The notes under the pieces were generated by a model, which did no database searches, was not told the DNA's origin, and was given only the letters and a program-made list of their open reading frames with translations. Source: Bacteroidales bacterium UBA3742 (GTDB lineage: Bacteria > Bacteroidota > Bacteroidia > Bacteroidales > Paludibacteraceae). Taken from it: DNA of 39,576 nt. The translations under genes were made by a program, and so were the position numbers. Below, piece after piece: positions 3,196-24,522 of this stretch (the stretch's first letter is position 1; the number at the start of each line of letters is the position of its first letter). The DNA is taken from positions 1-39,576 of the forward strand of contig DFGU01000091.1 of the NCBI GenBank assembly GCA_002371785.1, in the 5' to 3' direction.

Positions 3196-3831
3196 TTACT
3201 CTGTTCCAAACAGGAATCGGCGAAAGACGGTTTTTGCGGCGTCCGCACCAATCATCTTGCTGACAACCCTATACGTAGGTCCGTCGTTGATCAGTCCCTC
3301 TACATAGGCGCTGTTGCGGGCAGACTTGGCTGTCAAATCCACGTCGCGGGCAGTCGCGAAAAGATGGATATAAGCGGTCATCATTTCCGTTGCCAAGGCC
3401 GAGAGACGTGCCGTATCGCCCACTTTGGACACGCTGGGTGGCAGCAGCAGATCGTTGTACCATCCCGGGTGCTTGGGTTTGTCCCTGAGGTCGCGATAGG
3501 CCTCTTTTATCGTCTGCAGAGCCGATAGATCAGCCGGTGCTACTTGGGTGTCATAGATATCCACCAGCAGCGTTTTCCTGCCGAAAGCGCTGATATAGTC
3601 GTAGGAGAGCAACGGCAGGTCCTTGGCATACGGCGTACAGATAAGCGTCTCCATCTTCATCAAACCGAAGAACGCCCGCATCGTGAGATACGACACGCAC
3701 GCACAATGGTTCCAATCGTAGGACTGCAAGCAGAACGTCATTCCCCTGCCGGAGAAAGTCTGCCAAGGCGTCACATCCTTTGGAACGAGTGCCCCTTTGG
3801 CGGAAAAGATGTCAAGCTTTGAGCCACTCAT
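3196..3831 (-). CDS. Hypothetical protein with possible ferredoxin-dependent bilin reductase (FDBR)-like fold
   Basis: A 211-aa ORF with host-like composition. By eye, METLICTPYAKDLPLLSYDYISAFGRKTLLVDIYDT and the C-terminal NDGPTYRVVSKMIGADAAKTVFRRFLFG resemble conserved PcyA/PebS-type segments. The start is uncertain because it overlaps the upstream gene by 20 nt. Confidence 0.55.
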   Translation of the reverse strand: MSGSKLDIFSAKGALVPKDVTPWQTFSGRGMTFCLQSYDWNHCACVSYLTMRAFFGLMKMETLICTPYAKDLPLLSYDYISAFGRKTLLVDIYDTQVAPADLSALQTIKEAYRDLRDKPKHPGWYNDLLLPPSVSKVGDTARLSALATEMMTAYIHLFATARDVDLTAKSARNSAYVEGLINDGPTYRVVSKMIGADAAKTVFRRFLFGTE

Positions 3832-4606
3832 AACGTGCTACGGAATAGATCGGCAACAGCGGAATCAGAATGGGCGTTTTCTTGATGTACGCCTGATATT
3901 CGGGGTCGGCACCGTAAGCCGCGTTCTGGCGGATCTCCAAACGACGGGCACCGCTGAACATGACGTAAACGATACAGATATAACCGAGGGCCGCTATCAT
4001 CCACTGCCACCATACCAGTCCTGCCCCGATAGCGCTGAGCATCACACCCGTCCAGATGAGCACTTCGCCGAGATAGTTCGGACAGCGTACAATGCGGTAG
4101 AGACCGGTATCCACAAAGCGTTTGGGATTGCGTTTCTTGGCGGCGGACTTTTGTGCGTCACTACCCGCTTCCAGCAATATACCACACAGCATGACGGCGG
4201 CGCCTATCCATGCCCATGTCTCGGAACCCTGCACGCCGTTCATCAAGCGGAACGCCACAGGACTGACCTGCATCACGTACAACAGCGCGCAGGATATCCA
4301 TATAATACTCATTGCAGCCGCAGGTTTCTTCTCCGGAGCGTCTCCGCCATACAGGATTTTCCGATACGCCGCCGATTTGCGTTCGCGCATAAACAGATAC
4401 GTGCCGAGACGCATGCCGAAGATGACCATCAGCAGGAGCAACGCAATCGTAGCAGGCGTCAGTGCCGCATAGTACAACACACCCATCGCCACAGCCAAGG
4501 CCACCACGCTATAGCCGTAGCCGATACTGAAAAAATAGATGAAATACTTCCACCCCACAGCCGAAACCGCGAGCGAAACAGCCAAAAGAATTAGTAATTT
4601 AAGCAT
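3812..4606 (-). CDS. DUF1295 / steroid-5-alpha-reductase-like integral membrane protein
   Basis: A 264-aa polytopic membrane ORF. The C-terminal motif GLYRIVRCPNYLGEVLIWTG is typical of the DUF1295 / ICMT-like reductase-methyltransferase superfamily. Confidence 0.8.
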   Translation of the reverse strand: MLKLLILLAVSLAVSAVGWKYFIYFFSIGYGYSVVALAVAMGVLYYAALTPATIALLLLMVIFGMRLGTYLFMRERKSAAYRKILYGGDAPEKKPAAAMSIIWISCALLYVMQVSPVAFRLMNGVQGSETWAWIGAAVMLCGILLEAGSDAQKSAAKKRNPKRFVDTGLYRIVRCPNYLGEVLIWTGVMLSAIGAGLVWWQWMIAALGYICIVYVMFSGARRLEIRQNAAYGADPEYQAYIKKTPILIPLLPIYSVARYEWLKA

Positions 4607-4673
4607 GATATGTAGGTATTATAAATTTCAATAATGTATTGTTGTTTACTTTGCCGTGTACCCTCAGTTTGAA

Positions 4674-5042
4674 CTATTCGGAAATTTCGAATAGTTGCCC
4701 CTTCTGATCATCATTTGTTTTTGCCAATTGCCCGATGACAAAGCCACGGAGGGTGAAATAGTATTTGTCGGAGGGCTTGGCTGTGGATTTGTATTCGTCG
4801 TAACGTTGCTGCCAATAGGCTCGGCGAGCGGGATCAGCCAGTTCCTGTTTGGCTTGCTTGGAGATTTGGGCAAAAGAGGAATTCAGTTCACGCTGATGGG
4901 GCGTGATTTTTGAGGGATCACGATGTTTCGGATAATGACTAATGACCGTCTTTCCATAGCGATGGGTGATGTAGATATCACTATCGCCATAGATTTTGCC
5001 GGACATTTTGTCTAATGAGATATTTAATTCCGCTTGGGCCAT
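4674..5042 (-). CDS. Hypothetical protein (122 aa)
   Basis: An intact ORF at the edge of the AT-richer block, on the same strand as its neighbours. No domain recognised. Confidence 0.55.
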   Translation of the reverse strand: MAQAELNISLDKMSGKIYGDSDIYITHRYGKTVISHYPKHRDPSKITPHQRELNSSFAQISKQAKQELADPARRAYWQQRYDEYKSTAKPSDKYYFTLRGFVIGQLAKTNDDQKGQLFEISE

Positions 5043-5157
5043 AATTTTCTTCTTATATTATTTAATTATTATGCTTATCTTGGTAGGACATTAGCCTCCG
5101 ATGTCGTCTCGTTGCCGTGTCGTTGTCGAGTGCAACTAAGGTTTGACGGGGGATTAA

Positions 5158-5361
5158 TTACTCTTTCAGCCAAACTGGTCTTTCCTCTGTTTCTTTAAAT
5201 GCTTCTAAATACGGATGCCATCTCAGAAAGTTTTGCATCTCTTGGCCATGTTCTTTATAACTGATGATTTCACCATTATCGCCAACATTGAGTGCATAAA
5301 CCTTTTCTGCAGTTGTATCTATTAGATACTCCAAACTTTCTTCTCCGCAAAAGACAAACAT
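5158..5361 (-). CDS. Hypothetical small protein (67 aa), weak SUKH/SMI1-like C-terminal resemblance
   Basis: The ORF starts 24 nt downstream of the DUF262 gene stop and is AT-rich like that gene. The pattern EYLIDTTAEKVYALNVGDNGEIISYKEHGQEMQNFLRW loosely recalls SMI1/KNR4-type immunity domains. Confidence 0.45.
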   Translation of the reverse strand: MFVFCGEESLEYLIDTTAEKVYALNVGDNGEIISYKEHGQEMQNFLRWHPYLEAFKETEERPVWLKE

Positions 5362-5385
5362 AGGATTAACTAGTAAACAAAATTA

Positions 5386-7215
5386 TTATTCTTGTTCTTC
5401 GTCTTCCGAATCATTATCTACAAAAACACCTTCTTCATTCAGATTTTGCACGTCACGAACGATAGGTTTACCCATTGCATTCTCAATGAGTTTAAAGATT
5501 GCTTCTTTTCTATCATCTATAAAATCATTAAATCTATCATAACGCACCAGTTCTGGGTTAATCACATGTGTGCGTAAAAGGTTGTCTATATCTTCAGCGG
5601 AAATTTTTGCCTTCTTCTCCAAGCGTATAAGATATTTGCTTGGAGCCTCTCCGCCGACAAAGATGTTTGTACCTTTAGAAAGTGGCGTTTTATTTATAAT
5701 TGTATCATAATCACTCTTGGGGATCTTGTTGTTCTCACACCAGAGTCGTGGAAATATATGATGAATATCTATTGATTTTTGGAAATATGTTTCCATTTCT
5801 ATTTTTGAACCCGTAAGCCAATCCGTCGTGTTTTCTCCCATTAATAATGCATATATTCCCTTGTATGCAGCACTATTACGAGTTCGTAATGTTTGCAAAC
5901 GAGAAGGAGAGAATACTGCATCATATATAGTTTGAGGCTCTTTCTCATCATTAAGAATCCAACCTACGACTTGCTGAATATCCAAGGCATAACGCGTTTC
6001 GTTGGCAGATCCATATAGCTCTCCAAAGACGCCACACCAAAACCAACGCATTAATTTATTCTTATTTCCTATATTATCAATCTCTTTTCCTAATACAGCA
6101 ATGATTGCTGACATCGGTATCAGTTGAGAAGTATATGGTAAATCACGAGCTGTAAATATATGATTACAAGTTAGAAGTTCTGCCGCTTTTATAAAGCCAT
6201 CAACAATTTCTTGTCGAGTGTCCTCATATTCATCAACTTTCAATTCTAGCATGCTTTTTCTTTTTGCGCTAACGGCAGGAATCTTTTCTGTCTCATTGCT
6301 TGCCTGCATTGCCGCCATTTTCTTCTTATATGTAGAAAGCAAAGTTACAGCTTGGATTAAATCGGTATTACATGTATTTTTTAGTACTTTATGATTGTTA
6401 AATGATGCATGAATATTGTCCCAATCTTTTTTCAAATCAAATCCACTTGCGGCATAAGTAGCAGTAAGCAATTCAAATACAGTCAAAGAAACACCGCCCG
6501 TATTGACCTTTTCAAACACCTGACAAACTGCTTCTTTACTATTCTCTTTTTTCATCACAATCACAGGCACACTATAGTGGCTATAATTGTTTATGACATA
6601 TCGTTCAAATTGACTTAAGAATCTCAATTTCTCGGTATCATAATTCCAATACTCCTCAAAATGCCATCTCCATTCGCTAAATTCATCAATCATGCACACA
6701 GGAAACATCATATTTTCAAACTCTTTCTCTTGTGTACTCAAATCACAGATAATATCATGACCAATATTCTGAGTGGCAATTTTGTTTTCATTGATAGAAA
6801 AAATCGCTTCTTCTAAATCCAAATCAGGATTCAAGGCCTTTTGCATATCTATATAATACCATCTTTTTATTTCATAGCCTTTTGAATTTTTCGTATTGAC
6901 AACACTATTTGAAACAATTGTTTGATACAAACTCGTCAAACGCTGCTGACCGTCAAGGATTAAATACTCCGGCTTAATATCTTTTGATATATTCACTCCT
7001 TCTACAGGTTTAGTCTTAAAAGAAGTGTTTTCTCCTGTTTCGAGAAGAGTAACAACACTTATTGGGAATGATTTGATTACAGATGCAATCAGTCCTTTGA
7101 TGCGGTTGTCATCCCACACCCATCCTCTTTGAAAGTCAGGAAGTTGAATTTTCCCTGTTTTGATGTCACATAGCAAATCTGCTAATGGTTTCTTCGTTGT
7201 ATCAAATGTTTCCAT
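5386..7215 (-). CDS. GmrSD-like DUF262 (ParB-like NTPase) / DUF1524 (His-Me finger nuclease) fusion protein, probable type IV (modification-dependent) restriction / defence nuclease
   Basis: A 609-aa ORF. The N-terminal LPDFQRGWVWDDNRIKGLIASV matches the DUF262 DxQRxxVW signature. The C-terminal DIHHIFPRLWCENN...INKTPLSKGTN matches the DUF1524 H..P...N...N pattern. Strongly AT-rich relative to the flanks. Confidence 0.85.
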   Translation of the reverse strand: METFDTTKKPLADLLCDIKTGKIQLPDFQRGWVWDDNRIKGLIASVIKSFPISVVTLLETGENTSFKTKPVEGVNISKDIKPEYLILDGQQRLTSLYQTIVSNSVVNTKNSKGYEIKRWYYIDMQKALNPDLDLEEAIFSINENKIATQNIGHDIICDLSTQEKEFENMMFPVCMIDEFSEWRWHFEEYWNYDTEKLRFLSQFERYVINNYSHYSVPVIVMKKENSKEAVCQVFEKVNTGGVSLTVFELLTATYAASGFDLKKDWDNIHASFNNHKVLKNTCNTDLIQAVTLLSTYKKKMAAMQASNETEKIPAVSAKRKSMLELKVDEYEDTRQEIVDGFIKAAELLTCNHIFTARDLPYTSQLIPMSAIIAVLGKEIDNIGNKNKLMRWFWCGVFGELYGSANETRYALDIQQVVGWILNDEKEPQTIYDAVFSPSRLQTLRTRNSAAYKGIYALLMGENTTDWLTGSKIEMETYFQKSIDIHHIFPRLWCENNKIPKSDYDTIINKTPLSKGTNIFVGGEAPSKYLIRLEKKAKISAEDIDNLLRTHVINPELVRYDRFNDFIDDRKEAIFKLIENAMGKPIVRDVQNLNEEGVFVDNDSEDEEQE

Positions 7216-7249
7216 TGTGTATTTAAGATTTTAATTTTACGTTGTTATA

Positions 7250-7687
7250 TTAAAAGTTATCCCAATCTATCACTCGTGCAAAGTCGTGGTAGTTAATGGA
7301 TTTTATATGTTTTCCTATTATTTCTTGGAGAGATGTGTCCAAACTTGGCGCATCATCAAACCAAACTATCGTCAAGTGGCTGTCATTCGATTTGTCTCTT
7401 AACGACAATTCAAAACGATATGATTTTAGTATTTCGTCGGGTTTTAAAGGATCGTCGTCTATTATTTGGAAAGGCTTTTGTTCGCACGTTTCTATTTGAT
7501 CGGGGGTTAGTTGAAATAAAAAGCCTTCTTCCTTTGATTGTTTCAACAATCTTTGCAATATGTGGACAGCAACGCTATGGAAAGAGCCTTCCATACTACC
7601 TTCATATGTGTTTGAAACCCGAAAAGAACGTATTTCTACATCCTTTTCATCCGGGAAATCAATTGTTATGTGCTTTTTATTCTGCAT
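7250..7687 (-). CDS. Hypothetical protein (145 aa), first gene of the DUF262 block
   Basis: An intact ORF 34 nt upstream of the DUF262 gene, with the same strand and AT-rich composition. No domain recognised. Confidence 0.6.
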   Translation of the reverse strand: MQNKKHITIDFPDEKDVEIRSFRVSNTYEGSMEGSFHSVAVHILQRLLKQSKEEGFLFQLTPDQIETCEQKPFQIIDDDPLKPDEILKSYRFELSLRDKSNDSHLTIVWFDDAPSLDTSLQEIIGKHIKSINYHDFARVIDWDNF

Positions 7688-7737
7688 TATTTATAATAGT
7701 TTACAAAGTGTCTACTATCGGGTGGTGTTATTTTTTT

Positions 7738-7997
7738 AATCCTCCATAAATGGCGGATACTTTTCTTTCAATCCTCCATATATGGCGGATACTTTTCTTT
7801 TAATCCTCCATATATGGCGGATACTTTTCTTTTAATCCTCCATAAATGGCGGATGCTTTTCTTTCAATCCTCCATATATGGCGGATACTTTTCTTTTAAT
7901 CCTCCATAAATGGCGGATGCTTTTCTTTTGATCCTCCATATATGGCGGATACGGTGGGTGCTTTTAATCCTCCATATATGGCGGATACTTTTTTTGG
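7738..7997. repeat. Tandem array of 8 head-to-tail units (32 bp; unit 7 is 36 bp), each AATCCTCCATAWATGGCGGATRC plus a T-rich linker (REP-like array)
   Basis: Direct reading puts the CCTCC unit starts at 7741, 7773, 7805, 7837, 7869, 7901, 7933 and 7969. Each unit holds an imperfect 20-bp palindrome whose arms are ATCCTCCAT/ATGGCGGAT, with one T:C mismatch. Two unit variants (ATAAAT and ATATAT cores) partly alternate. Confidence 0.95.
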
Positions 7998-8000
7998 TTG

Positions 8001-8020
8001 ATCCGCCAAACTTGGCGGAT
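8001..8020. repeat. REP-like palindrome ATCCGCCAAACTTGGCGGAT (9-bp perfect arms)
   Basis: Read directly. It lies between the tandem array and the RAYT-like stop codon. An extra half-site GGCGGATAC sits at 8030-8038. Confidence 0.9.
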
Positions 8021-8039
8021 GCGTTTCTTGGCGGATACG

Positions 8040-9203
8040 TTATTCGGTATGGCGGGTGCTATGCATTGTATGGCGGGTAGTACTATGCATTGTAGGGCGG
8101 AGGCTGTTCTTACATATTTGGGCGGCGAGGGTGTTCATGTTATGGAAGCGGCTGTAGTCGGTATCTGCGGGGATGTCGTTGACATCTCCCATATCGGTCA
8201 GTTGCCAGGGAGAGAGAATGAGCAATTGTCCCATCTCACAGAGCTGATGACGCCGCTTCTCCGGATGCCAGCCATCGCGTATGGGTTCTTTTTGCAAATG
8301 GATAAGCGGAAGGGCTTGCTCGATACAATCCTTGACCAGTTGTTGTTCGCCTTTCGATATACCCGGTGTGACCAATACGGCGCCATCCTTGGCTGCTTGG
8401 ATCCATGCGGCGCGTTCTTGCTGGAACGCGTCGGTGGTCTCATAGCGGGTATTATAGTCGCGTTGATCGCCGCGCATAAGCCAACGATGGCAGAAGACCT
8501 GTTCTTTCCACGGGCGCTTGAGCAAAAAGAGATTTCCATATGCAGCGAAGTCCTGTCCGTCGATGGTGATATGCTGGCGACGCTGGAACAAATCGGGATA
8601 CAAACCTCGCATGATCGCCCGACGAGGATTATCCTGGACATAGTTGATGATGTTCTCCAGCTGGCCTTTGCGGTAACAAATGGTATCATCGTAATTGTCG
8701 TCGAAGAGGGGCTCTATATCATGCTCGGCATAATAGGTCTCGCGCTTTTTGCGGGAGGAATGGGCGAGGTATTCGCGATCTATGTCGGGATCCGCCATAT
8801 ATGGCGGATACAAAGAACGATACGCCTGTGTACAGCCCATTTTGAAGCCGCGGATGATCTCACCAAGAGGTACGTCCAAGGGACGCTCTACCTGGAGGAT
8901 ACCATGGAAATGGTCGGGCATGACCTGGTAGCCCAGCGAACGGATTTGACGGCCGCGGGCGGTTTGCTTATCAAAGGTCTGTAGCCACGCTTGCTCTACG
9001 TATTGACCAAGCTTGGTCAATACGATAGAGGGAGCGGAGAGATCGTTGTTCAGTTCGCCAAACACGCGCTTGCGTGCGTGCGTGACGATAGTAATAAGGT
9101 ATATCCCGGAGGATTTGTAATCCCTCCAGGTATTGTGAGGACGATGGGCGCTACTCAATAGGCCGCCACGGTCCTTCCAATATGTATACCAATCGAACGA
9201 CAT
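8040..9203 (-). CDS. REP-associated tyrosine transposase (RAYT)-like HUH/Y1 protein with a long C-terminal extension
   Basis: A 387-aa ORF. It has the HUH motif (VMPDHFHGILQV) and the downstream Y motif (ENIINYVQDNPRRAIMRGL, compare YIxxNP of IS200/RAYT Y1 enzymes). Palindromic repeats flank it on both sides. About 180 further residues after the Y motif have no recognised domain. Confidence 0.8.
   Translation of the reverse strand: MSFDWYTYWKDRGGLLSSAHRPHNTWRDYKSSGIYLITIVTHARKRVFGELNNDLSAPSIVLTKLGQYVEQAWLQTFDKQTARGRQIRSLGYQVMPDHFHGILQVERPLDVPLGEIIRGFKMGCTQAYRSLYPPYMADPDIDREYLAHSSRKKRETYYAEHDIEPLFDDNYDDTICYRKGQLENIINYVQDNPRRAIMRGLYPDLFQRRQHITIDGQDFAAYGNLFLLKRPWKEQVFCHRWLMRGDQRDYNTRYETTDAFQQERAAWIQAAKDGAVLVTPGISKGEQQLVKDCIEQALPLIHLQKEPIRDGWHPEKRRHQLCEMGQLLILSPWQLTDMGDVNDIPADTDYSRFHNMNTLAAQICKNSLRPTMHSTTRHTMHSTRHTE
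8047..8100. repeat. Degenerate tandem repeat GTATGGCGGGT..CTATGCATT (2.4 copies) inside the 3' end of the RAYT-like ORF
   Basis: Read directly: gtatggcgggtgctatgcatt / gtatggcgggtagtactatgcatt / gtagggcgg. It encodes the repetitive C-terminal tail TMHSTTRHTMHSTRHTE. Confidence 0.85.
8790..8809. repeat. Perfect 20-bp palindrome ATCCGCCATATATGGCGGAT inside the RAYT-like coding sequence
   Basis: Read directly. It is self-complementary over all 20 nt and encodes PPYMADPD, between the HUH and Y motifs. Confidence 0.95.
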
Positions 9204-9211
9204 TGTTTATG

Positions 9212-9264
9212 ATCCGCCATGTATGGCGGATACGTATGGGGAGGATCCGCCATACATGGCGGAT
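9212..9264. repeat. Two REP-like palindromes: ATCCGCCATGTATGGCGGAT at 9212-9231 and ATCCGCCATACATGGCGGAT at 9245-9264
   Basis: Read directly. They fill almost the whole gap between the gdhA stop (9268) and the RAYT-like start (9203). Confidence 0.95.
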
Positions 9265-9267
9265 GCG

Positions 9268-10623
9268 TTATACCAGGCCTTGCTCGACCATGGCGTTGGC
9301 GACTTTCATGAAGCCGGCGATGTTAGCACCACGGACGTAGTTGATATAGCCGTCCTCCTCTGTGCCATACTTGAGGCAAGCGGCGTGGATGTCGGCCATG
9401 ATGGTACGCAGACGTTGATCCACCTCCTCGGCGGTCCACTTGAGACGCATCGAGTTCTGGCTCATCTCGAGACCGGAGGTAGCTACACCACCGGCGTTGC
9501 TGGCCTTACCCGGGCTATAGAGGATCTTAGCGCCTTGGAACAACGCAATAGCATCCGGCGTGGTCGGCATGTTAGCGCCTTCGGTCACGCAGAAGCAACC
9601 GTTCTTAAGCAGGTTCTCGGCGTCGGCTTTTTCAATCTCGTTCTGCGTAGCGCACGGCATAGCGATATCGCAAGGGATGCGCCATGGACGCTCGCCGGGG
9701 AAATACTGAGCCTGCGGATACTTAGCCACGTACTCTTTGATACGGCCGCGACGAACGTTTTTGAGTTCGAAGACATAGGCCATCTTCTCTTCGTTGAGAC
9801 CTTCCGGATCGTAGATGAAACCGTCGGAGTCGCTCAAAGTGAGCACCTTGGCGCCCAGACGCATGGCCTTCTGGGCAGCGAACTGCGCTACGTTACCGGC
9901 ACCGGAGATACATACACGCTTGCCCTCGAAGGACTCACCACGCGTTGCGAGCATCGCCTCGGCGAAGTAACAAGCACCGTAGCCGGTAGCCTCCGGACGC
10001 ATGAGCGAACCGCCCCAGTTCTGGCCTTTACCGGTGAGCGTACCGGTGAACTCGTCACGCAGACGCTTGTACTGGCCGAACATAAAACCAATCTCACGAC
10101 CACCTACACCGATATCACCGGCCGGTACGTCGGTATCAGCACCGATATGACGCTGGAGCTCGGTCATAAACGACTGGCAGAAACGCATCACCTCGGCGTC
10201 GGACTTGCCACGCGGCGAGAAATCGGATCCACCCTTGGCACCACCCATCGGCAGCGTGGTGAGGGCGTTCTTGAAGGTCTGCTCGAAGGCGAGGAACTTC
10301 ATGATACTCAGGTTGACAGACGCATGGAAACGGATACCTCCCTTATACGGACCGATAGCCGAGTTCATCTGTACGCGGAAGCCGCGGTTGATCTGCACCT
10401 CGCCCTCATCGTCCATCCACGGTACGCGGAACATGATGACGCGCTCGGGTTCTACCATGCGCTCCATGATCTTCTGCTCACGCAGATAGGGATAGGCCAT
10501 GATCATCGGTGCGACCGATTCTACTACTTCGCGAACAGCCTGGTGGAACTCGTGCTCACCGGGGTTCTTGCTGATCAGGTCGGCCATAAAAGACTCGACA
10601 TACATTTGGGTTTGTTTGTCCAT
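9268..10623 (-). CDS. gdhA: NADP-specific glutamate dehydrogenase
   Basis: A 451-aa ORF with hallmark GDH segments (KGGIRFH, LPMGGAKGGSDF, GAGNVAQ). Confidence 0.95.
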   Translation of the reverse strand: MDKQTQMYVESFMADLISKNPGEHEFHQAVREVVESVAPMIMAYPYLREQKIMERMVEPERVIMFRVPWMDDEGEVQINRGFRVQMNSAIGPYKGGIRFHASVNLSIMKFLAFEQTFKNALTTLPMGGAKGGSDFSPRGKSDAEVMRFCQSFMTELQRHIGADTDVPAGDIGVGGREIGFMFGQYKRLRDEFTGTLTGKGQNWGGSLMRPEATGYGACYFAEAMLATRGESFEGKRVCISGAGNVAQFAAQKAMRLGAKVLTLSDSDGFIYDPEGLNEEKMAYVFELKNVRRGRIKEYVAKYPQAQYFPGERPWRIPCDIAMPCATQNEIEKADAENLLKNGCFCVTEGANMPTTPDAIALFQGAKILYSPGKASNAGGVATSGLEMSQNSMRLKWTAEEVDQRLRTIMADIHAACLKYGTEEDGYINYVRGANIAGFMKVANAMVEQGLV

Positions 10624-10650
10624 AATGTTGAATATTATAACAGATTAATA

Positions 10651-11409
10651 CTAATTTCGTTGACGAATAGCCTCGTAGATAAATACACCGGCCGCTACAC
10701 TGACGTTGAGCGACTCGATGACACCGGTCATAGGCAGCTTGACGCGGTCGGTACAGAGGTCCAGGTTCGGACCATAGATACCATGCTCCTCGGAGCCCAT
10801 GACGATAGCCGTCGGACCCGTCATGTCGCAGTCGGTATAGAGGCGGTCGGTATGTTCGGTAGCAGCCACGACGCGCAGTCCGCTGTCGCGCAAGTACTGC
10901 AGGCACTCCTGCATATTCTCCACCTTGCAAATGGGCAGGGAGAAGAGGGCACCGGCCGAGGTCTTGATGGCATCGCCGTTGATGGCGACGCTACTACGCG
11001 AAGCAATAACGATCCCGTGTACACCCGCACAAGCGCATGTACGCGCGATAGCTCCGAAGTTGCGCACATCGGTCACGCCATCCAGCACCACCAGCAACGG
11101 CGTCTTGCCCTCGTCGTAGAGCGACTGCACGAGGCTATCGATCGGATAGAACTCGACAGGCGAGAGGAAGGCGATGACGCCCTGATGATTCTTGTCGGTA
11201 TATTGGTTGAGGCGCTCTACGGGCACACGCTGGATATTGGTGGCGGTGCCTGCCAGTTTCTGCTGCAGTTCGCGTCCGATAGCGGAGTTCATATCGCGGC
11301 GCATCAGCACTTTGTCCAGCGCTTTGCCGGCCTCGATGGCCTCTATTACCGCCCGGATACCGAAGATCATCTCCTTCTCCGGCGGACGTTTGGTGTCATA
11401 TTGTTTCAT
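10651..11409 (-). CDS. rlmB: 23S rRNA (guanosine-2'-O)-methyltransferase, RlmB/TrmH (SPOUT) family
   Basis: A 252-aa ORF. It has an N-terminal SpoU substrate-binding-like segment (IFGIRAVIEAIEAG) and C-terminal SPOUT motifs (NFGAIARTC, MGSEEHG, ESLNVSVAAG). Confidence 0.85.
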   Translation of the reverse strand: MKQYDTKRPPEKEMIFGIRAVIEAIEAGKALDKVLMRRDMNSAIGRELQQKLAGTATNIQRVPVERLNQYTDKNHQGVIAFLSPVEFYPIDSLVQSLYDEGKTPLLVVLDGVTDVRNFGAIARTCACAGVHGIVIASRSSVAINGDAIKTSAGALFSLPICKVENMQECLQYLRDSGLRVVAATEHTDRLYTDCDMTGPTAIVMGSEEHGIYGPNLDLCTDRVKLPMTGVIESLNVSVAAGVFIYEAIRQRN

Positions 11410-11421
11410 ATAATGGTCGGT

Positions 11422-13056
11422 TTAAAAATTCTTAATCAGTCGGCCTTGCGCGTCATAAACACGACCGGCATAGTGCATATATACCTGACCGCCATGCAGG
11501 AACTTGCTGGCAGCGCGTTGCTGCTCGGCCGAGAGTTGCTCCAGCGGGGTCTCTCCGCCGGGCTGCGCCTGGATGGTGAAGACGGTCATGATGACCGTGG
11601 TAGGCAGGTAGTTGTTGTTGCCGGGATGGTAAGCCACCACCGTCACTTCGCCCTCGTTCTCCGGCATGATGATGCCATCCTCGATCGAGAGCAGACACTC
11701 TGTATAGGCGTACGTGATAGGCAGGCCGGACGAGAGTACGGCGGTAGAAGGCACGGGTGTACCCACGGTCAGCTGGGTCGGTTGCTCCTCCCACAGGATG
11801 GTCTGCACAGCTTTGTTCACATGCAGCGGCACTTGGAGCGTGCGGGTGTTGTAGATACACGGGTCGTCGGGCGTGAAGATCAAGGTGAGCGCATAGTCGC
11901 CGGCATCCAGGAGGGAGTCTGTGGCTATATTCTGCCAAGCAAACGAACCCGGCACTTGGCCGAGCGTCTCATGTATCTGAGCCGCGCTCAAGGGCTGACC
12001 GTACGTCAGGTCGTCTACCGTCACGCCGATCATCGGATCGGCTTTGCGGATGCTCAGGCTCTTGGCAATCGGTTCGGCCGCATTGTATTTGTAGTTACCC
12101 GGCTGGGTAGCGGTCAGCGTCACCTCGCCAGCACACAGGATCTGCACTACCCCATCCTGCACATACGCTATCGTGGAATCCGAACTCTCATACTGCACCG
12201 GCAGACCCGACGACGTGAAGGCATTCAGCATCGGTCGGTCGGTGGTAAGGTACTCGCCCAGGGTCTGGATCCAGGTGAGCGTCTGGTCGTATTTCTTGGT
12301 CTCACCCGAGACGGCGATACGCACCTCGCGGCCCTCACCGGCAATCACGATCTCGCCGCTATGCTGGCCCGCTTCGCTATGCGAATAGATGATATTGAGT
12401 TGGGTGGACTGGTTGATCTGGTTCTTCTGCCCCACCGACGTGAGCGAGGCCGAGAAATGCGGGTCGGTAGAAGATACCTCGGCCACGATATTGGTCCAGT
12501 TGACCGTCACACTCTTCACGCCATCGGCATCGTCGACCATGGCGCTACCGAAGGGCCACTCGTCGGTGCTGGCGCTCAGGCTCTTCAGTTCGGTCACCTT
12601 GATCTTGCGGAACGCGACCGCCGTCTTACCCGTTGCGTAGAACTTCAGGTAACGGGTGTTGGTGGCCAGCGCCAAGCTCTCCTCTGTATCGGTGGAGATG
12701 GTGTTACCCTCTTTGGTCAGCAGAAGCGACCAGTTGTTGTGGTCGGGCGACTGATAGACGCTGAGCGAACCGTTACTACCACCTTGCCATGCAAAGCTCA
12801 AGGTCTCGGGTATGCCAACCGGATTGAGCGCGATGACACACTCGTCCTCATAGGTACCAATCAGCACGATCTTACCTATTTTCAGGCCACCGCCCAGGCC
12901 CAATAGCGCATTATCATAACTCACGTTCTCCGTCTTGGAGATCACGGTCTGGGCATTGTTGAAATCGTCTTTTGTAAACTCCGTATCCCAGGCCAGTTGG
13001 GCCGAGAGGGAGATCGAAACAGCCATCGCTGCTATCAAAGCGTAAAACTTATTCAT
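11422..13056 (-). CDS. Secreted hypothetical protein with Ig-like repeats
   Basis: A 544-aa ORF with a signal peptide (MNKFYALIAAMAVSISLSAQ), beta-rich repetitive content and a C-terminal GGQVYMHYAGRVYDAQGRLIKNF tail. Confidence 0.7.
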   Translation of the reverse strand: MNKFYALIAAMAVSISLSAQLAWDTEFTKDDFNNAQTVISKTENVSYDNALLGLGGGLKIGKIVLIGTYEDECVIALNPVGIPETLSFAWQGGSNGSLSVYQSPDHNNWSLLLTKEGNTISTDTEESLALATNTRYLKFYATGKTAVAFRKIKVTELKSLSASTDEWPFGSAMVDDADGVKSVTVNWTNIVAEVSSTDPHFSASLTSVGQKNQINQSTQLNIIYSHSEAGQHSGEIVIAGEGREVRIAVSGETKKYDQTLTWIQTLGEYLTTDRPMLNAFTSSGLPVQYESSDSTIAYVQDGVVQILCAGEVTLTATQPGNYKYNAAEPIAKSLSIRKADPMIGVTVDDLTYGQPLSAAQIHETLGQVPGSFAWQNIATDSLLDAGDYALTLIFTPDDPCIYNTRTLQVPLHVNKAVQTILWEEQPTQLTVGTPVPSTAVLSSGLPITYAYTECLLSIEDGIIMPENEGEVTVVAYHPGNNNYLPTTVIMTVFTIQAQPGGETPLEQLSAEQQRAASKFLHGGQVYMHYAGRVYDAQGRLIKNF

Positions 13057-19738: not shown

Positions 19739-21061
19739 TCAGTGCTGTCTGACATACATGACTAAGCGTAAAGGACGAGAGTCGTCGTCGGCTTTCTTGA
19801 ATTGCAACAGGATCGGATCGTCGGGTTTCGGCAGGCGAACACCTACCAGTTCCGTCCAAGGAGACAGTTTGTCAGCCGCTTTGCGTCGGCGTTGGATGTC
19901 TCGGGCAGTCTGGTTCTTTCGACGATGGCTCACCCCGGGCTGGAAGGGTTCGATGATATGTTGCTGCTCGGCCAGCACGATCTGCTCGGCAGACGCCACG
20001 AACAGCGCCTCGCCGGCTACGCGGCTACAATATTCTGCAAATCGGGTACGATCCGTCTTGTTCATCCCGAGGGCTATGCTCCCGGACTTATCCGGCGCGT
20101 CCTTCTGCATGATTTTCTTCCAGAGCGCGCTTTCCACGTCCTCCGAGATATAATACGGCTGCTCTGCCGGCACATAGACAAAGCGCAACTTCTTGCCCTT
20201 CAGGCGAATAGAACGCGTGAGCGGCGCTTCTTTGTTTTCCACGACCTGCATCATAGGATCGTCGGGAAGCGTAAACGCCACCCGCAGACCGATATAGCCG
20301 GCGGTGGTCTCGGGCACGTACCAACGGCGTACGGAGATATGGCTATTTGCAGCACATTCATCGTAACTGCTGCCACGAGCTATCCGATAGCTGCCCGTGT
20401 CGGCACCGCATGGATTCGGCGTTGTGCTCAACTGATAGGCACCGTAAATATCCTGACACCATTCAGCCACATTACCCGTCATATCATACAACCCCAATTC
20501 ATTCGGATGCTTGTGTCCCACATGGTGCTTCCAATTACCCGAACACGAGTAGGTCCACCCTACGCTATCGAGTTCGTTGCCGCCCGAGAAACGATAGTGT
20601 TTACTTTGCGCCCCACCACGTGCGGCATATTCCCATTCTGCCTCGGTCGGCAGACGAAACGGCAGACCGGTGATACTATCCAGCCGACGCACAAACTCCT
20701 GACAATCATGCCAAGAAATAAACGAGATTGGTAAGGTAGGATGATACTTGGGACTAATGATTTCCTTTTCCGGCATCACGGCATGCCACAGTTCGACGGT
20801 CACTTCCGTGGTGGCCATGTAATACGGGGAGAGAAAGACCAGATGAGCCGGTTTATCGGTATAGATATCCTTATCATATTGATCCTGCGTGGCCCCCATC
20901 ATGAACGAACCGCCCTCCACGCGTTGCATCGTAAACGGGATGCCATGGACTAATATCTCCAACCGCTGCAACGAATCGGGCACAACTGGTCGATGCTTAC
21001 GCGCCGACACCGGCTGCACCAAGCATAGCAATCCTATCAGTATGACCCATACTCGACTCAC
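19739..21061 (-). CDS. Formylglycine-generating enzyme (SUMF1/FGE-sulfatase) family protein with C-terminal extension
   Basis: FGE-domain motifs are present (EAEWEYAARGG, GLYDMTGNVAEW, RGSSY). I set the start to the GTG at 21061, which gives a signal-like MSRVWVILIGLLCLVQPVSA. The listed 21217 start adds an implausible AT-rich leader. Confidence 0.75.
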   Translation of the reverse strand: MSRVWVILIGLLCLVQPVSARKHRPVVPDSLQRLEILVHGIPFTMQRVEGGSFMMGATQDQYDKDIYTDKPAHLVFLSPYYMATTEVTVELWHAVMPEKEIISPKYHPTLPISFISWHDCQEFVRRLDSITGLPFRLPTEAEWEYAARGGAQSKHYRFSGGNELDSVGWTYSCSGNWKHHVGHKHPNELGLYDMTGNVAEWCQDIYGAYQLSTTPNPCGADTGSYRIARGSSYDECAANSHISVRRWYVPETTAGYIGLRVAFTLPDDPMMQVVENKEAPLTRSIRLKGKKLRFVYVPAEQPYYISEDVESALWKKIMQKDAPDKSGSIALGMNKTDRTRFAEYCSRVAGEALFVASAEQIVLAEQQHIIEPFQPGVSHRRKNQTARDIQRRRKAADKLSPWTELVGVRLPKPDDPILLQFKKADDDSRPLRLVMYVRQH

Positions 21062-21342
21062 ACCCAGAATGCAACAAATATCGTGCCACACAATATTTTT
21101 TTCGAAGAAAAAAATATATGCAAGCTGTACGATTCTTAAGATTTTTCCTAGCAAGGGGCAAGCCATATGCAAGCCATGGTTTTCCCATGGTTTATAATTA
21201 CCTGTTTTTGCCCCCAAAAATATACGATTGTTAAGATTTTGAGGTTTAAACCTATACTATTTCCAAAATAGAGGATTTTGAATGAAAATTTAACAAATTC
21301 TGAAGATTCTTACTTGAAAACTTGTATATGTTGTAAAAAAAT

Positions 21343-21482
21343 AGTACCTTTGCGACCGATTTTGAACGCAAGGGTACTATTAAAACGACACCCGATAGTT
21401 TGACTTGCGTCAGGGACTACCGGGGATTCCGCTGCAAAAGTACTACATTTTTTTGAATTGTGCAAATATTTTGACAAAAAAA
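21343..21482 (+). repeat. 140-bp direct repeat, copy 1 (promoter box plus structured leader)
   Basis: By eye it is identical to 22241-22380 except for one position (21360 t versus 22258 a). It contains TACCTTTG at 21345-21352 and 13-nt imperfect inverted termini (tagtacctttgcg ... gcaaaagtactac). Confidence 0.9.
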
Positions 21483-21614
21483 TTACATTTTTAATGAAAG
21501 ACACATCATATATTATAAATGAATACTATATAGTCTTGATCATGTACAAGCAGTTTGTAACAAGATAAATCAGGTAAAGGCGGCTATTAACCATTATTTT
21601 TAAATTGCATATAT

Positions 21615-22019
21615 ATGAAACGGTTTATTTTCTTATTATCTGTTATTTGCCTTGTGGCATCATGTTCAAAACCACCTTATGTAGATCGCTATTACGTATA
21701 CGATGACGACGACGGCTGTGCGTTTATTTTCCATAATGACGGCTCGGTGGACATATACGAATTCTTCTGGCGTGAACACATTAGAGGAACATATATCTGT
21801 AATTTCCCTCAAGTATCTATTACTATAACTGAACTGGATTCGGGGACAAGACCGGAGATACGCTATTATAACGAAGCTCCTTCTGCATATCCAGATTCGT
21901 TATGGTTTAGCTCACAATCTGATACATTGTATAGGTACAATCCATCATATATACGTGACACCATCCCGTTAACTACGTCAAATTGGTTGGATTTCATGTT
22001 ATTCAGAATTGGATTGTGA
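21615..22019 (+). CDS. Hypothetical small lipoprotein (134 aa)
   Basis: It has a lipoprotein signal with lipobox (MKRFIFLLSVICLVASC), is AT-rich, and lies between the two 140-bp repeat copies. Confidence 0.65.
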   Translation: MKRFIFLLSVICLVASCSKPPYVDRYYVYDDDDGCAFIFHNDGSVDIYEFFWREHIRGTYICNFPQVSITITELDSGTRPEIRYYNEAPSAYPDSLWFSSQSDTLYRYNPSYIRDTIPLTTSNWLDFMLFRIGL

Positions 22020-22043
22020 GTGATGAATTCAAGGGTACCGACT

Positions 22044-22071
22044 GAGAGTGAAAGATTCGAGGGATTCGAGG
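22044..22071 (-). other. Degenerate fragment of the tRNA-Ser 3' end (att-like scar)
   Basis: gagagtgaaagattcgagggattcgagg, compared with the tRNA 3' end ggagagtgagggattcgaacc at 24300. It sits directly after the lipoprotein gene stop. Confidence 0.55.
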
Positions 22072-22240
22072 ACACCGACATTGCCTGCGGCAATCCCACC
22101 TCGAAAACCCTAAAGCCTGCCGGCGGCACCTTGTTCAAAGAAAAAAAGAGCGATTTGCTTGCTTGAGTAAACTCAGACAGACAAATCGTCCTTTTTTCTT
22201 TGCGAAAATGATAAAATTCTTGCATATGTCAGAAAAAAGT

Positions 22241-22380
22241 AGTACCTTTGCGACCGAATTTGAACGCAAGGGTACTATTAAAACGACACCCGATAGTTTG
22301 ACTTGCGTCAGGGACTACCGGGGATTCCGCTGCAAAAGTACTACATTTTTTTGAATTGTGCAAATATTTTGACAAAAAAA
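22241..22380 (+). repeat. 140-bp direct repeat, copy 2 (promoter box TACCTTTG at 22243-22250 plus leader of the Abi-like gene)
   Basis: See copy 1. The offset between copies is exactly 898 bp. Confidence 0.9.
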
Positions 22381-22392
22381 AAAGAATTTTTT

Positions 22393-22689
22393 ATGAAATA
22401 TACCGATTTTGAAGCAATAATGTCACCGGAACGAATGAGCAGATACCTCATTGCGACCAAAGGAGACACCAATAAGGCAATGGCACTTTACCGGGCCAAC
22501 TTGCATCTTTCGCAAGAGGTTTTTACGGTAGTGAGTTGTTTTGAGGTTGCGCTTCGAAATGCAATTGATGAGCGTTTGAAAGTGACATTAGGGGCGGATT
22601 GGCTTCGTGATGCTATACAACCAGGCGGTATATTTGATGTCAAGAAATTTTCTAAAAACATCTTCCTGTCATATATAATAACAAAGTGA
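22393..22689 (+). pseudogene. Abi-family (Abi_2 / AbiD-AbiF-like) protein, N-terminal fragment only
   Basis: From the ATG at 22393: MKYTDFEAIMSPERMSRYL...ALYRANLHLSQEVFTVVSCFEVALRNAIDERL, which matches the conserved N-terminal Abi_2 pattern. The ORF stops after 98 aa, whereas family members are roughly three times longer. Confidence 0.55.
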
Positions 22690-22703
22690 ATTGATTTGCC
22701 CAT

Positions 22704-23885
22704 ATGAAGATGTTTTCTTTTTTAAAACTCTCAATTATTGTATCAGTTTGTTTATTTTGGGCTTCATGCGCCATCATCCGCGGCCAGATAGCGGACGGGC
22801 CGAGCGGCCCCTCTTCCTATAGTTTTGAGCATCACGCGCATGACACTATTGTCAATGGAGCAACGACTTTCAGCTTTCCATATGCTAATCAACAAGCTGA
22901 ATGGATTGACACGCTTCATTTCTTTACGCAGCCTCCTGCATATAAGCGGCCTCGAACCATGTGGGAAGCATTGGATGGCAAAACAGATACACAAGGTGTT
23001 CTAATCATCCAAAACGATAGCATCGTTTACGAGAAATGTCAGGGCGACATCTCGACTGACAGGATTGCTACAGTCTTCTCTGTCTCCAAATCGATCACTT
23101 CACTACTATGCGGCATCGCTGTTGACGAAGGGTATATCAAGAGTATCGACGATCCCGTAACTGATTATTTGCCCGAATTAAAACAGAAGAACGACATGTG
23201 GCAGAAACTGACTATACGCCATTTGTTGGATATGCGTAGCGGCTTGGATTTCGACGACACCTATTCTCTTCGTTTAAAAGACCTCAAGCGGCTGAATGCT
23301 ATGGCGAAGCTGAACTACGGCAAGAATATCATGAAGCAAATCAGAGGTCTGAAGTTCGAAAACGAACCCGGTACTATGTATAAATACGAAAGTATGACCT
23401 CGGAAATCTTAGGCATCGTCATCCAGCGAGCTACAGGTCAACGCTTTGTGGACTACTTGAGCGATAAGGTCTGGATTCCTTTACAAATGGAGTCACCAGC
23501 CATCATCAATATTGATAGCCGCAAGTACGATATGCCTCATACTTTTGGCGGTATCAGTACTACCATGAAAGATCTGGCAAAAATCGGCAGGTTATATTTG
23601 AATAAAGGGATGTGGAATGGTACACGTATCGTTAGCGAAGAGTGGATTCGTCTTTCGACGGAATATAATACGGAGAACGATGGGTATCACATGAATTGGT
23701 ACAACACTAGTTGGATGGATTACACGCCGGAATATCCAGGTTTTTACGCATATGGCATACGCGCACAAGTACTATACGTAAATCCATATAAGAATCTCAT
23801 CATGATACGTTTTGGCAAGCGCGATGACACATATGCTTTTATCCCATATATGTTTGAAATGCTCAGTAATAATGAAAGATTCTAA
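22704..23885 (+). CDS. Serine hydrolase, beta-lactamase/transpeptidase-like (class C/PBP4* family), lipoprotein
   Basis: A 393-aa ORF with a lipoprotein signal (LFWASC) and the SxxK active-site motif (FSVSKSITS). Confidence 0.85.
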   Translation: MKMFSFLKLSIIVSVCLFWASCAIIRGQIADGPSGPSSYSFEHHAHDTIVNGATTFSFPYANQQAEWIDTLHFFTQPPAYKRPRTMWEALDGKTDTQGVLIIQNDSIVYEKCQGDISTDRIATVFSVSKSITSLLCGIAVDEGYIKSIDDPVTDYLPELKQKNDMWQKLTIRHLLDMRSGLDFDDTYSLRLKDLKRLNAMAKLNYGKNIMKQIRGLKFENEPGTMYKYESMTSEILGIVIQRATGQRFVDYLSDKVWIPLQMESPAIINIDSRKYDMPHTFGGISTTMKDLAKIGRLYLNKGMWNGTRIVSEEWIRLSTEYNTENDGYHMNWYNTSWMDYTPEYPGFYAYGIRAQVLYVNPYKNLIMIRFGKRDDTYAFIPYMFEMLSNNERF

Positions 23886-23894
23886 ACGTATCTC

Positions 23895-23908
23895 GTGAGG
23901 GATTCGAA
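23895..23908 (-). other. Exact 14-nt copy of the tRNA-Ser 3'-end segment (gtgagggattcgaa)
   Basis: Read directly, 10 nt after the serine hydrolase stop. Confidence 0.6.
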
Positions 23909-23955
23909 AATTGCAAAGCAATAATCGACAGAGCGTAGCGGCGGAGAACCCACCG

Positions 23956-23984
23956 ATCGGGGGTTGAGAAGGCCCTCATCTCCG
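23956..23984 (+). other. Degenerate, inverted (plus-sense) copy of the tRNA-Ser T-arm/acceptor 3' end
   Basis: atcgggggttgagaaggccctcatctccg, compared with the tRNA sense sequence atcgggggttcgaatccctcactctccg. Confidence 0.45.
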
Positions 23985-24033
23985 AATAAAAGAAAAAGGG
24001 ACGCCCCTTGTGGGTATCCCTATTCTTTTACCG

Positions 24034-24049
24034 CGGAGAGTGAGGGATT
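24034..24049 (-). other. Exact 16-nt copy of the tRNA-Ser 3' end (cggagagtgagggatt)
   Basis: Read directly. It matches 24299-24314 of the intact tRNA gene. Confidence 0.65.
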
Positions 24050-24229
24050 GGGACGCCGCCTTGGCTATGCCAATTCCCCCCAATCCACTTTCTGTGCCAG
24101 AGGCATCCTGGGCAAAGCTATAGTTCTTCCAACTAAACAAAATACAAAGGAAAGAGTGCAGGCACCCTTTCTTTTTGTGAACCATAGTACCTTTATGATA
24201 ATAAATTCTCAACAGGCTCTATTGTCCAC

Positions 24230-24256
24230 AAAAAAATGGAAGTCAATGACCTCCAT
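24230..24256 (-). terminator. Intrinsic terminator downstream of tRNA-Ser
   Basis: On the minus strand: AUGGAGGUC-AUU-GACUUCCAU (a 9-bp stem with one G-U pair) followed by a U run. It lies about 40 nt after the tRNA 3' end. Confidence 0.7.
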
Positions 24257-24298
24257 TCCTTTTTGCATTTTGTTCAGTTTCCCGAACTCTTCGCTTTG

Positions 24299-24387
24299 CG
24301 GAGAGTGAGGGATTCGAACCCCCGATACGACGTAATGCGTATACCGCATTTCGAGTGCGGCTCTTTCGACCACTCAGACAACTCTCC
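24299..24387 (-). tRNA. tRNA-Ser (anticodon CGA), class II with long variable arm
   Basis: The reverse complement reads GGAGAGTTGTCTGAGTGGTCGAAAGAGCCGCACTCGAAATGCGG...GGGGGTTCGAATCCCTCACTCTCCG. It has a 7-bp acceptor stem, anticodon loop CTCGAAA, T-loop GGTTCGAATCC and a long extra arm. No CCA is encoded. Confidence 0.9.
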
Positions 24388-24522
24388 TTCGCCCTCGCGT
24401 TCGGCACACTCGGACACGGACTGAATCACAAATTCATTAGGGTCCTCGTGGCCTCCGCTCTTAAATCGAAATATCGCTTACGTTGGCATTTCGATTTAGC
24501 ACTTCCGACGCGAAAGCGGGTG

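Follow-up and report, generated by a model that had tools for sequence, protein, structure and literature searches.

A BrxU-like nuclease gene of the GmrSD superfamily in a modular cassette with small candidate accessory genes in a Paludibacteraceae genome

We analysed a 39,576-nucleotide stretch of DNA (below, the window: contig DFGU01000091.1, positions 1 to 39,576, assembly GCA_002371785.1) from Bacteroidales bacterium UBA3742, family Paludibacteraceae. It carries a cassette of four co-oriented minus-strand genes, P1 to P4, of which P2 encodes a 609-aa candidate nuclease of the GmrSD superfamily. The first gene, P1 (7250-7687), encodes an acidic protein of 145 aa (pI 4.9) without a known domain. 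It is followed by P2 (5386-7215), by P3 (5158-5361; 67 aa, acidic, pI 4.6) and by the last gene, P4 (4674-5042; 122 aa, basic, pI 9.2), which is present as the allele that we call A. The spacers are 34 nt between P1 and P2, 24 nt between P2 and P3, and 115 nt between P3 and P4. The GC content is 0.33-0.37 over positions 5001-8000 against 0.52-0.60 on both sides, and DNA comparison with related loci places the limits of the cassette at approximately 4713-7690 (about 3 kb, 35% GC). P4 has a GC content of 0.46, above that of the rest of the cassette, and its own conserved upstream spacer. The block is a horizontally acquired cassette of foreign composition that has entered a variable site flanked by gdh and a gene of the PPDK_N family.

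A sequence-only reading of this region had described an AT-rich block wedged between GC-rich core genes, with four minus-strand ORFs of the above lengths, gaps of 34 and 24 nt around the 609-aa gene, no domains in the small ORFs and no BREX or Ssp genes. All of these features were borne out by the ORF list, the base composition and the database searches. P1, P3 and P4 have no match in Pfam, NCBIfam, PADLOC or PHROGs, and no BREX, Ssp or other PADLOC family was found among the ten other large ORFs of the window or among the cassette neighbours. Rfam and promoter/terminator scans gave nothing informative.

Type IV restriction nucleases of the GmrSD superfamily have a C-terminal His-Me finger nuclease that is under the control of a ParB-like NTPase domain, DUF262. 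P2 has the corresponding layout, with DUF262 at the N-terminus, then a helical linker, and at the C-terminus the putative His-Me-type motif HH-I-F-P...N508...N517. The N-terminal domain matches PF03235 (GmrSD_N) with E 5.5e-31 over residues 11-254, covering profile positions 1-198 of 199. The DxQRxxVW signature of DUF262, proposed from the sequence alone, is indeed present as PDFQRGWVWD, and a second N-terminal motif is DGQQR. The proposed DUF1524-like nuclease motif is also present, as DIHHIFP...NKT...TN, but PF07510 (DUF1524/GmrSD_C) does not match the protein at E<=0.1, and the only related Pfam hit is a sub-threshold match to HNH_4 (0.071). The basis of the label DUF1524-like is thus the motif, together with the alignment of a profile to BrxU.

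Both sets of motifs are conserved in an alignment of 64 homologues from 63 genomes of many phyla, which are 44-93% identical to the window protein. The invariant N-terminal residues are Q24-L-P-D-F-Q-R30, W32, W34, D36 and L87-D-G-Q-Q-R92. The motif F234-E...V-N-T-x-G is invariant as well. At the C-terminus H485, H486, F488, P489, N508-K-T510, T516 and N517 are invariant, and D483 is retained in 63 of the 64 sequences. S45, at the position of the dimerisation serine of BrxU, does not vary.

The closest characterised relative is BrxU. The PADLOC model HEC-05 (PDLC04151) matches P2 over its full length (2e-18; residues 8-582 against positions 25-594 of 600), whereas the models of SspE, NsnA and PD-T4-2 match the N-terminus only. 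HEC-05 represents the BrxU family: according to a preprint of Payne et al., BrxU and the tested HEC-05 protein have 99.2% identity. A search of the PDB with the single sequence (phmmer) retrieved nothing, and a deeper profile was required: the profile of the 64 sequences matches BrxU (7p9k) at 6.5e-10 in three collinear segments. In this alignment idiHHifP lies over fhvDHIYP of BrxU, the C-terminal segment being weak when taken alone (i-Evalue 1.4). The two proteins are of similar length, match collinearly as wholes, and share a DUF262 domain with QR and DGQQR motifs and a C-terminal xHIxP motif followed by conserved asparagines. However, their identity is very low (14% in a structural alignment that involves a low-confidence model), and the RLFDS of BrxU corresponds to GLIAS in the window protein. 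Where the (D/E)HxxP motif has its acidic residue, P2 has histidine, so that D-I-H-H-I-F-P stands where BrxU has DHIYP; in BrxU, the aspartate and the histidine of the HNH motif are needed for defence. Finally, the window gene lies outside any BREX or Hma locus and, in its cassette clade, is bracketed by small conserved genes.

The likeness to SspE, which had been proposed together with that to GmrSD and BrxU, is limited to approximately 100 N-terminal residues (2.9e-7 in PADLOC; 0.003 for the profile against 6jiv). There is no full-length similarity to SspE, and no ssp genes occur in the window. An AlphaFold2 model of P2 built from a 13-sequence alignment has a mean pLDDT of 52.9, with values below 50 in the DUF262 domain and the nuclease motif (residues 475-487 and 504-521). 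It is too poor for fold assignment and was used only for the Foldseek ranking of BrxU; here BrxU (7p9m_A) was the sole credible match (E 7e-3, probability 1.0; next match 0.8). Judged by its sequence, P2 is a GmrSD-superfamily enzyme of a BrxU-like branch with a variant nuclease motif, in which histidine stands for the acidic residue. Nuclease activity and a modified-DNA target are predicted for it from these similarities.

The organisation of the cassette was compared across related loci, denoted by L-numbers (L001, L011, L091 etc.). Most of them are rumen and gut metagenome contigs, and their independence is imperfect. Homologues of P1, P3 and P4 flank either a 609-type nuclease or a second nuclease of 613 aa in L001-4, L011, L012 and L091-L101. 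P1 and P3 keep their places around these two unrelated GmrSD nucleases in approximately nine cassette instances, and every P1 homologue of the close clade (45-96% identity) with a readable context is situated directly upstream of a GmrSD-type gene. The conserved linkage of P1 and P3 to DUF262 homologues that the sequence-only reading called for in other genomes is found, and around two nucleases rather than one.

The 613-aa enzyme contains both GmrSD_N and GmrSD_C (PF07510, 7e-20) and matches the HEC-06 model over its full length (2.3e-68). It shares the domain logic of P2, as do the canonical GmrSD enzymes Eco94GmrSD and EcoCTGmrSD. However, the identity of the two nucleases is 23% over 91 aa only, corresponding to the first approximately 90 residues of the window enzyme, and hhalign of the two family alignments, which are too shallow, aligned only the FE-x-LN-x-G motif.

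The arrangements with the 609-type nuclease are as follows. In the window, a 145-aa P1 precedes the nuclease, which is followed by the 67-aa P3 and P4 A. L011 has the same 145-aa P1 and 609-type gene, and its contig ends before P3. In L001-4, a 163-aa P1 is followed by the nuclease, a 267-aa fusion of P3 with a 200-aa domain, and P4 B. In L012 and L101, the 163-aa P1 and the nuclease are followed by a 202-aa protein consisting of the 200-aa domain alone, and by P4 B. The 613-type nuclease is found with a 145-aa P1, a 66-aa P3 and P4 B in L091-93; with a 163-aa P1, a 66-aa P3 and P4 A in L094-96; with a 163-aa P1, a 66-aa P3 and a fragment of P4 B followed by a Y1 gene in L097/98; and with a 163-aa P1, a fused 266-aa P3 and P4 A in L100. 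In L099, a 163-aa P1 precedes the 613-type gene, and the contig ends before P3. The alleles of P1, P3 and P4 assort independently. P4 B is a distant relative of P4 A, and P4 is probably a separate, loosely attached unit.

The cassette is modular: in related rumen Bacteroidales, the same P1/P3 bracket holds either the 609-type nuclease or the unrelated 613-aa HEC-06-like enzyme. Between the window and L091, DNA homology is confined to P1 (7250-7690, 83%) and P3 (5164-5367, 83%), the nuclease gene between them being replaced. Cassettes occupy at least three chromosomal sites, namely at gdh, in the dcw cluster between murE and mraY, and in the uxaC...dsbD region, and downstream of uxaC both nuclease types are found in related genomes. 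In the window and in several other hosts the surrounding genes are housekeeping genes and no defence island is present. No cassette without a nuclease was observed among the loci compared.

The 609 family as a whole shows a different picture. A protein search gave at least 8000 relatives among the matches listed, nearly all of 607-609 aa, and at least 536 species-level genomes encode one. Some copies are plasmid-borne, in Proteobacteria, Cyanobacteria and Actinobacteria, and their annotation says no more than DUF262 domain-containing protein. The small genes were searched for with tblastn and profile HMMs at 80 species-level genome loci of the family; P1, P3 and P4 are all absent from 78 of them, the two exceptions being L011 (97% identity) and L012 (84%). 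The family is large, mobile and overwhelmingly stand-alone. Since 78 of the 80 relatives have none of P1, P3 and P4, the enzyme needs no partner in general, and the small genes would be accessories. When all ORFs within 4 kb of the 609-type gene were clustered for 90 loci and the window, no neighbour family was conserved across the whole 609 family. Common neighbours are RhuM/Fic, AbiH and type I restriction-modification (R-M) genes; the type I R-M subunits are the commonest (7-8 loci), in agreement with a published neighbourhood survey (PMC4619093). In several contexts that otherwise differ, the DUF262 gene or the cassette has RhuM and/or Fic-domain genes as direct neighbours (L001-L004, 6421-7428; L094, 5962-6966; L005, 9950-11017; L008, 2580-3488); these may be another loosely linked module.

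The same insertion site exists without the cassette. In another Paludibacteraceae genome, a 609-type copy 82% identical to P2 is located at the gdh/PPDK_N site without P1, P3 and P4, its neighbours being a 45-aa ORF and rhuM. The window enzyme is 93% identical to its partnered 609-type relatives, and the catalytic motifs are unchanged in both comparisons. In L005 and L013, the DUF262 gene at this site is followed by rhuM, and an internal stretch of this rhuM gene recurs in the window as a 57-nt relic with 89% identity (4651-4707, strand not assigned). The relic marks the right-hand recombination junction, is a scar of an earlier arrangement, and encodes the last codons of P4 as a C-terminal extension.

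One possibility is that P2 is a plain stand-alone type IV enzyme, and that P1, P3 and P4 are functionally unlinked flanks acting as homology arms for recombination. This is the main rival explanation, and it accounts for the swap pattern. The 609 family is stand-alone almost everywhere, homology between the window and L091 stops at the ORF boundaries of P1 and P3, and P1 and P3 flanks of the same type are combined with one or the other nuclease, for which no fewer than two swaps are needed. The presence of both nuclease types downstream of uxaC, and the turnover and the rhuM relic at the gdh/PPDK_N site, also fit it. However, defence hotspots normally carry unrelated cargos, whereas both cargos seen here are of the GmrSD type. 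No nuclease-free cassette was seen among the compared loci, the small genes are under purifying selection, and P1 relatives too distant to serve as homology arms still adjoin two further GmrSD lineages, once in the reversed order. We consider inert flanks to be unlikely, though a serious alternative.

The selection on the small genes is evident from the dN/dS ratios, which are 0.12-0.30 for P1, 0.09-0.29 for P3 and 0.08-0.17 for P4; the values are 0.02-0.04 for the 609-aa gene and 0.02-0.08 for the nucleases overall. The range of 0.08-0.30 indicates that the small ORFs are real, functional genes. Across the cassettes P1 and P3 are acidic (pI 4.6-5.3, 19-21% acidic residues), and P4 is basic (pI 9.2-9.8). 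P3 occurs in three states: alone (66 aa), fused to a C-terminal domain of approximately 200 aa (266-267 aa), or replaced by that domain. The 67-aa P3 of the window was considered as a truncated pseudogene of the 267-aa gene; this was rejected, as purifying selection acts on the 66-67-aa form, which is also the state most often seen. A word-seeded search among 5.8e9 proteins found only 16 clusters of P1 and only 6 of P3; the search depth for P3 and P4 was below that for P1, as both were otherwise sought within the compared loci. No relatives of P1 and P4 were found in viral, phage and plasmid collections, and thus a phage origin is not supported.

A profile search with P1 against 1.84 billion representatives retrieved, at E<=1e-3, 23 proteins whose lengths range from 105 to 297 aa and which have in common the pattern β(I-x-F-x-D…V-E…S-F)-T-Y-x-G-x-x-E-G … L-K-x-Y-x-Y … L-T-x-x-W-F-D-D-x-P…S-L…I-I…I-x-F…A…I-D-L-D-N-F. 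The superfamily has no relative in Pfam, NCBIfam or PDB, and gave only chance-level matches to Pfam (25 members) and, as a profile, to the PDB. Six remote contexts could be read. In one, a 297-aa P1 fusion is encoded 52 nt upstream of a 593-aa GmrSD_N protein similar to HEC-05 (4.8e-33). In another, the gene of a 723-aa protein with both GmrSD_N and GmrSD_C is followed after 16 nt by that of a 161-aa P1. In the third, a REase-ARP/PD-(D/E)XK nuclease gene lies just upstream, its 3' end overlapping with the gene of a 133-aa P1, which precedes a TIR-LRR gene. The four GmrSD partners of 609, 613, 593 and 723 aa have mutual identities of 22-29%, and all have DGQQR and xH-I-x-P motifs. The P1 relatives beside the two further lineages are themselves remote (E 1e-7 to 1e-9, approximately 29-35% identity).

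The 297-aa fusion (L106, 5001-5894) consists of a P1-like C-terminal domain and an N-terminal region of approximately 170 aa. The latter contains two W-x(2)-(D/E)-x(2)-L…LGRS-x(2)-A…R repeats, which by eye resemble Myb/SANT helix-turn-helix domains; the region has no match in Pfam, PDB or NCBIfam.

DUF262 genes are, by a rough estimate, few per genome. An order-of-magnitude argument then makes it very unlikely that P1 stands beside four GmrSD lineages in some eight independent contexts by chance. The dependency is one-way: P1 adjoins GmrSD genes, and GmrSD genes rarely adjoin P1. We read the small genes as lineage-restricted accessories, neither random passengers nor obligate subunits. The alternatives offered by the sequence-only reading, an undescribed multi-component variant or a plain type IV enzyme among passengers, each captured half of the situation: nearly all relatives are stand-alone, and the linkage is kept in the nine or so cassettes.

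A gene near nucleases may also be there for its own sake. If P1 were an independent defence-island gene with its own function, as a small effector, decoy or regulator, it would come close to nucleases through the accumulation of defence genes in islands. Remote P1 genes are indeed found in an island with type I R-M and WYL genes, beside the TIR-LRR gene, and beside unknown genes of 355 and 98 aa, and RhuM/Fic, AbiH and type I R-M genes are common beside the 609 family. On the other hand, P1 and the nuclease gene are direct neighbours in the same orientation, 16-52 nt apart, and this recurs with four distant GmrSD lineages; it is seen in every instance of the cassette clade of the window, and the window and several other hosts have housekeeping genes instead of a surrounding defence island. 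We regard an independent P1 as improbable.

Still less probable is that the nuclease of the cassette clade depends on P1 and/or P3 for its activity or specificity, as an obligate multi-subunit enzyme. The operon-like spacing is tight and the genes are co-conserved within the clade, and two-gene GmrSD-type systems do exist: in TgvAB of Vibrio cholerae a GmrSD-type nuclease has an adjacent co-transcribed partner and both genes are required, which demonstrates that dependence on a second protein is possible (PMC11014532). However, TgvA is a DUF262 protein, whereas P1, P3 and P4 contain neither DUF262 nor any other Pfam domain, and most relatives of the 609-aa protein have no partner. The same small proteins accompany an unrelated enzyme, and P2 remains 82% identical to the partnerless copy at the same locus and 93% to partnered ones, with the same catalytic motifs.

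On balance we favour, with modest confidence, a BrxU-like nuclease in a modular cassette whose small genes are its accessory partners. As P1 relatives recur beside four mutually distant GmrSD lineages, P1 may be a protein partner of these enzymes. A feature common to the enzymes is proposed because identical types of P1 and P3 accompany unrelated nucleases and the P1 type does not vary with that of the nuclease. Under the proposed mechanism, P1, and possibly the acidic P3, would bind a feature common to GmrSD-type enzymes and, when bound, would restrain the nuclease, limiting self-damage until infection. That they recognise such a shared feature and modulate the enzymes, most likely by antitoxin-like restraint, is a plausible suggestion that falls somewhat short of probable; a role as sensor or adaptor is less likely. 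Restraint is preferred because the gene order and spacing fit it, because P1 and P3 are acidic, and because there is a precedent in TifA. More tentatively, P1, perhaps together with P3, might be a host-encoded universal partner of GmrSD enzymes, which binds something that HEC-05-like and HEC-06-like enzymes have in common and either holds the nuclease inactive until infection or tunes the choice of the DNA attacked.

The small gene upstream of the nuclease at gaps of 17-52 nt resembles a type II toxin-antitoxin pair, with the gene of a small acidic protein placed a short distance ahead of that of a larger nuclease that is potentially toxic to its own cell. One P1 homologue, the 297-aa fusion, also appears by eye to have an extra Myb/SANT-type N-terminal domain. 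However, P1 contains no known antitoxin domain, and the nuclease family nearly always occurs without P1. TifA is a small inhibitor of GmrSD-type enzymes, with 21% acidic residues, that binds several diverse GmrSD enzymes (PMC11322646). This binding of divergent enzymes is the property that one partner serving unrelated nucleases would need. P1 and P3 resemble TifA and T4 IPI* in being small and acidic, a likeness of composition only. In contrast to these phage-encoded counter-defence proteins, P1 and P3 are encoded by the host in the operon of the nuclease, and phage or viral collections yielded no relatives of them.

Several observations weigh against a partner role. Besides the partnerless majority of the 609 family and the same-site copy without the small genes, the P1 alleles of 145 and 163 aa do not track the nuclease type, which argues against a surface co-evolved with one enzyme. 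P3 is missing from L012. Three of the six remote P1 contexts have no directly adjacent nuclease: here P1 is found in the type I R-M/WYL island, next to the 355-aa unknown protein, and with a methyltransferase and a 98-aa zinc-ribbon protein. The P1 family is rare, and gut and rumen metagenomes supply most of its members; the association may therefore be inflated by common ancestry of the contexts. Finally, the AlphaFold2 model of P1 (15 sequences) has a pLDDT of 37.7 and is unusable for fold assignment.

The interval between gdh and the PPDK_N-family gene (3196-10623) is a variable hotspot when compared with L005-L007 and L013. In the related Paludibacteraceae genome it contains only the 82%-identical DUF262 gene, the 45-aa ORF and rhuM; in the window it contains a Y1 gene, an array of repetitive extragenic palindromes (REP), the cassette, and genes for a DUF1295 membrane protein and a 211-aa unknown protein. 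In cassette orientation gdh (9268-10623) and the Y1 gene are upstream, and the DUF1295, 211-aa and 983-aa PPDK_N-family proteins are encoded downstream; the PPDK_N label of the last comes from an 82.7%-identical orthologue in L005-L007.

The Y1 gene (8040-9203, minus strand; 387 aa) resembles IS200-type and REP-associated tyrosine transposases (NF047646, 4.8e-10, below the cut-off). Similar genes encoding 375-402 aa, all below curated cut-offs, recur beside the cassette, upstream in L011 (5612-6751) as in the window, and downstream in L097 (3602-4729) and L012 (13137-14345); the downstream ones are 74% identical in L097/98 and 27% in L012. Directly upstream of the cassette, positions 7734-8029 are occupied by a 32-nt tandem array of 9.1 copies (TRF score 412), the unit of which includes the 20-nt palindrome ATCC(T/G)CCATATATGGCGGAT. 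The same palindrome is found inside the Y1 gene (8790-8809) and upstream of it (9212-9231 and 9245-9264), giving 12 sites in the window against 0 expected. The array resembles a unit of the REP/RAYT type, that is, REP with an associated tyrosine transposase, with an expanded 3' REP. In L011, which has no array, the Y1 gene ends 3 nt before the P1 start. The Y1 transposase was considered as the mover of the cassette and rejected, as in the window, L011 and L097 the palindromes flank the Y1 gene only and leave the cassette outside.

Elsewhere in the window, a second AT-rich block (21000-24400, GC 0.36-0.45) probably represents a further acquired islet; besides several small domain-free ORFs it contains a gene for a 393-aa serine hydrolase of the beta-lactamase family, and tRNA-Ser(cga) (24298-24387) forms its end. 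Two long plus-strand ORFs, of 1227 aa (9223-12906) and 866 aa (233-2833), are antisense to gdh/SpoU and to the PPDK_N-family gene, respectively; they are not genes but stop-poor frames of the kind that GC-rich coding DNA usually has on its other strand.

In the literature consulted, GmrSD-type enzymes are described as single polypeptides, as split GmrS/GmrD, as DUF262 pairs (TgvAB), and as components of BREX, Ssp, type I and Hma systems. A limited literature search, which is weak evidence, found no description of a family of small non-DUF262 partners. The nuclease itself belongs to a known superfamily; what appears to be new here is the cassette with conserved small candidate partners. To our knowledge, GmrSD-type enzymes (GmrSD, BrxU, SspE, HEC-06) have been treated as self-contained, with the ways in which they avoid self-damage and are regulated largely unknown, and the only protein inhibitors known to us are derived from phages (IPI*, TifA). 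If the small genes are inert, the locus is an ordinary case of a stand-alone type IV enzyme at a variable hotspot. If the proposed role is true, the locus would represent a type IV restriction cassette of several components and of a kind not yet described, with a plug-and-play nuclease inside a regulatory frame that stays constant. A host gene family that stands beside four unrelated GmrSD lineages is a concrete candidate for an endogenous regulator or restraint of these enzymes, and the constant frame of small genes with interchangeable nucleases is a natural experiment in the recombinational swapping of defence modules in gut and rumen Bacteroidales.

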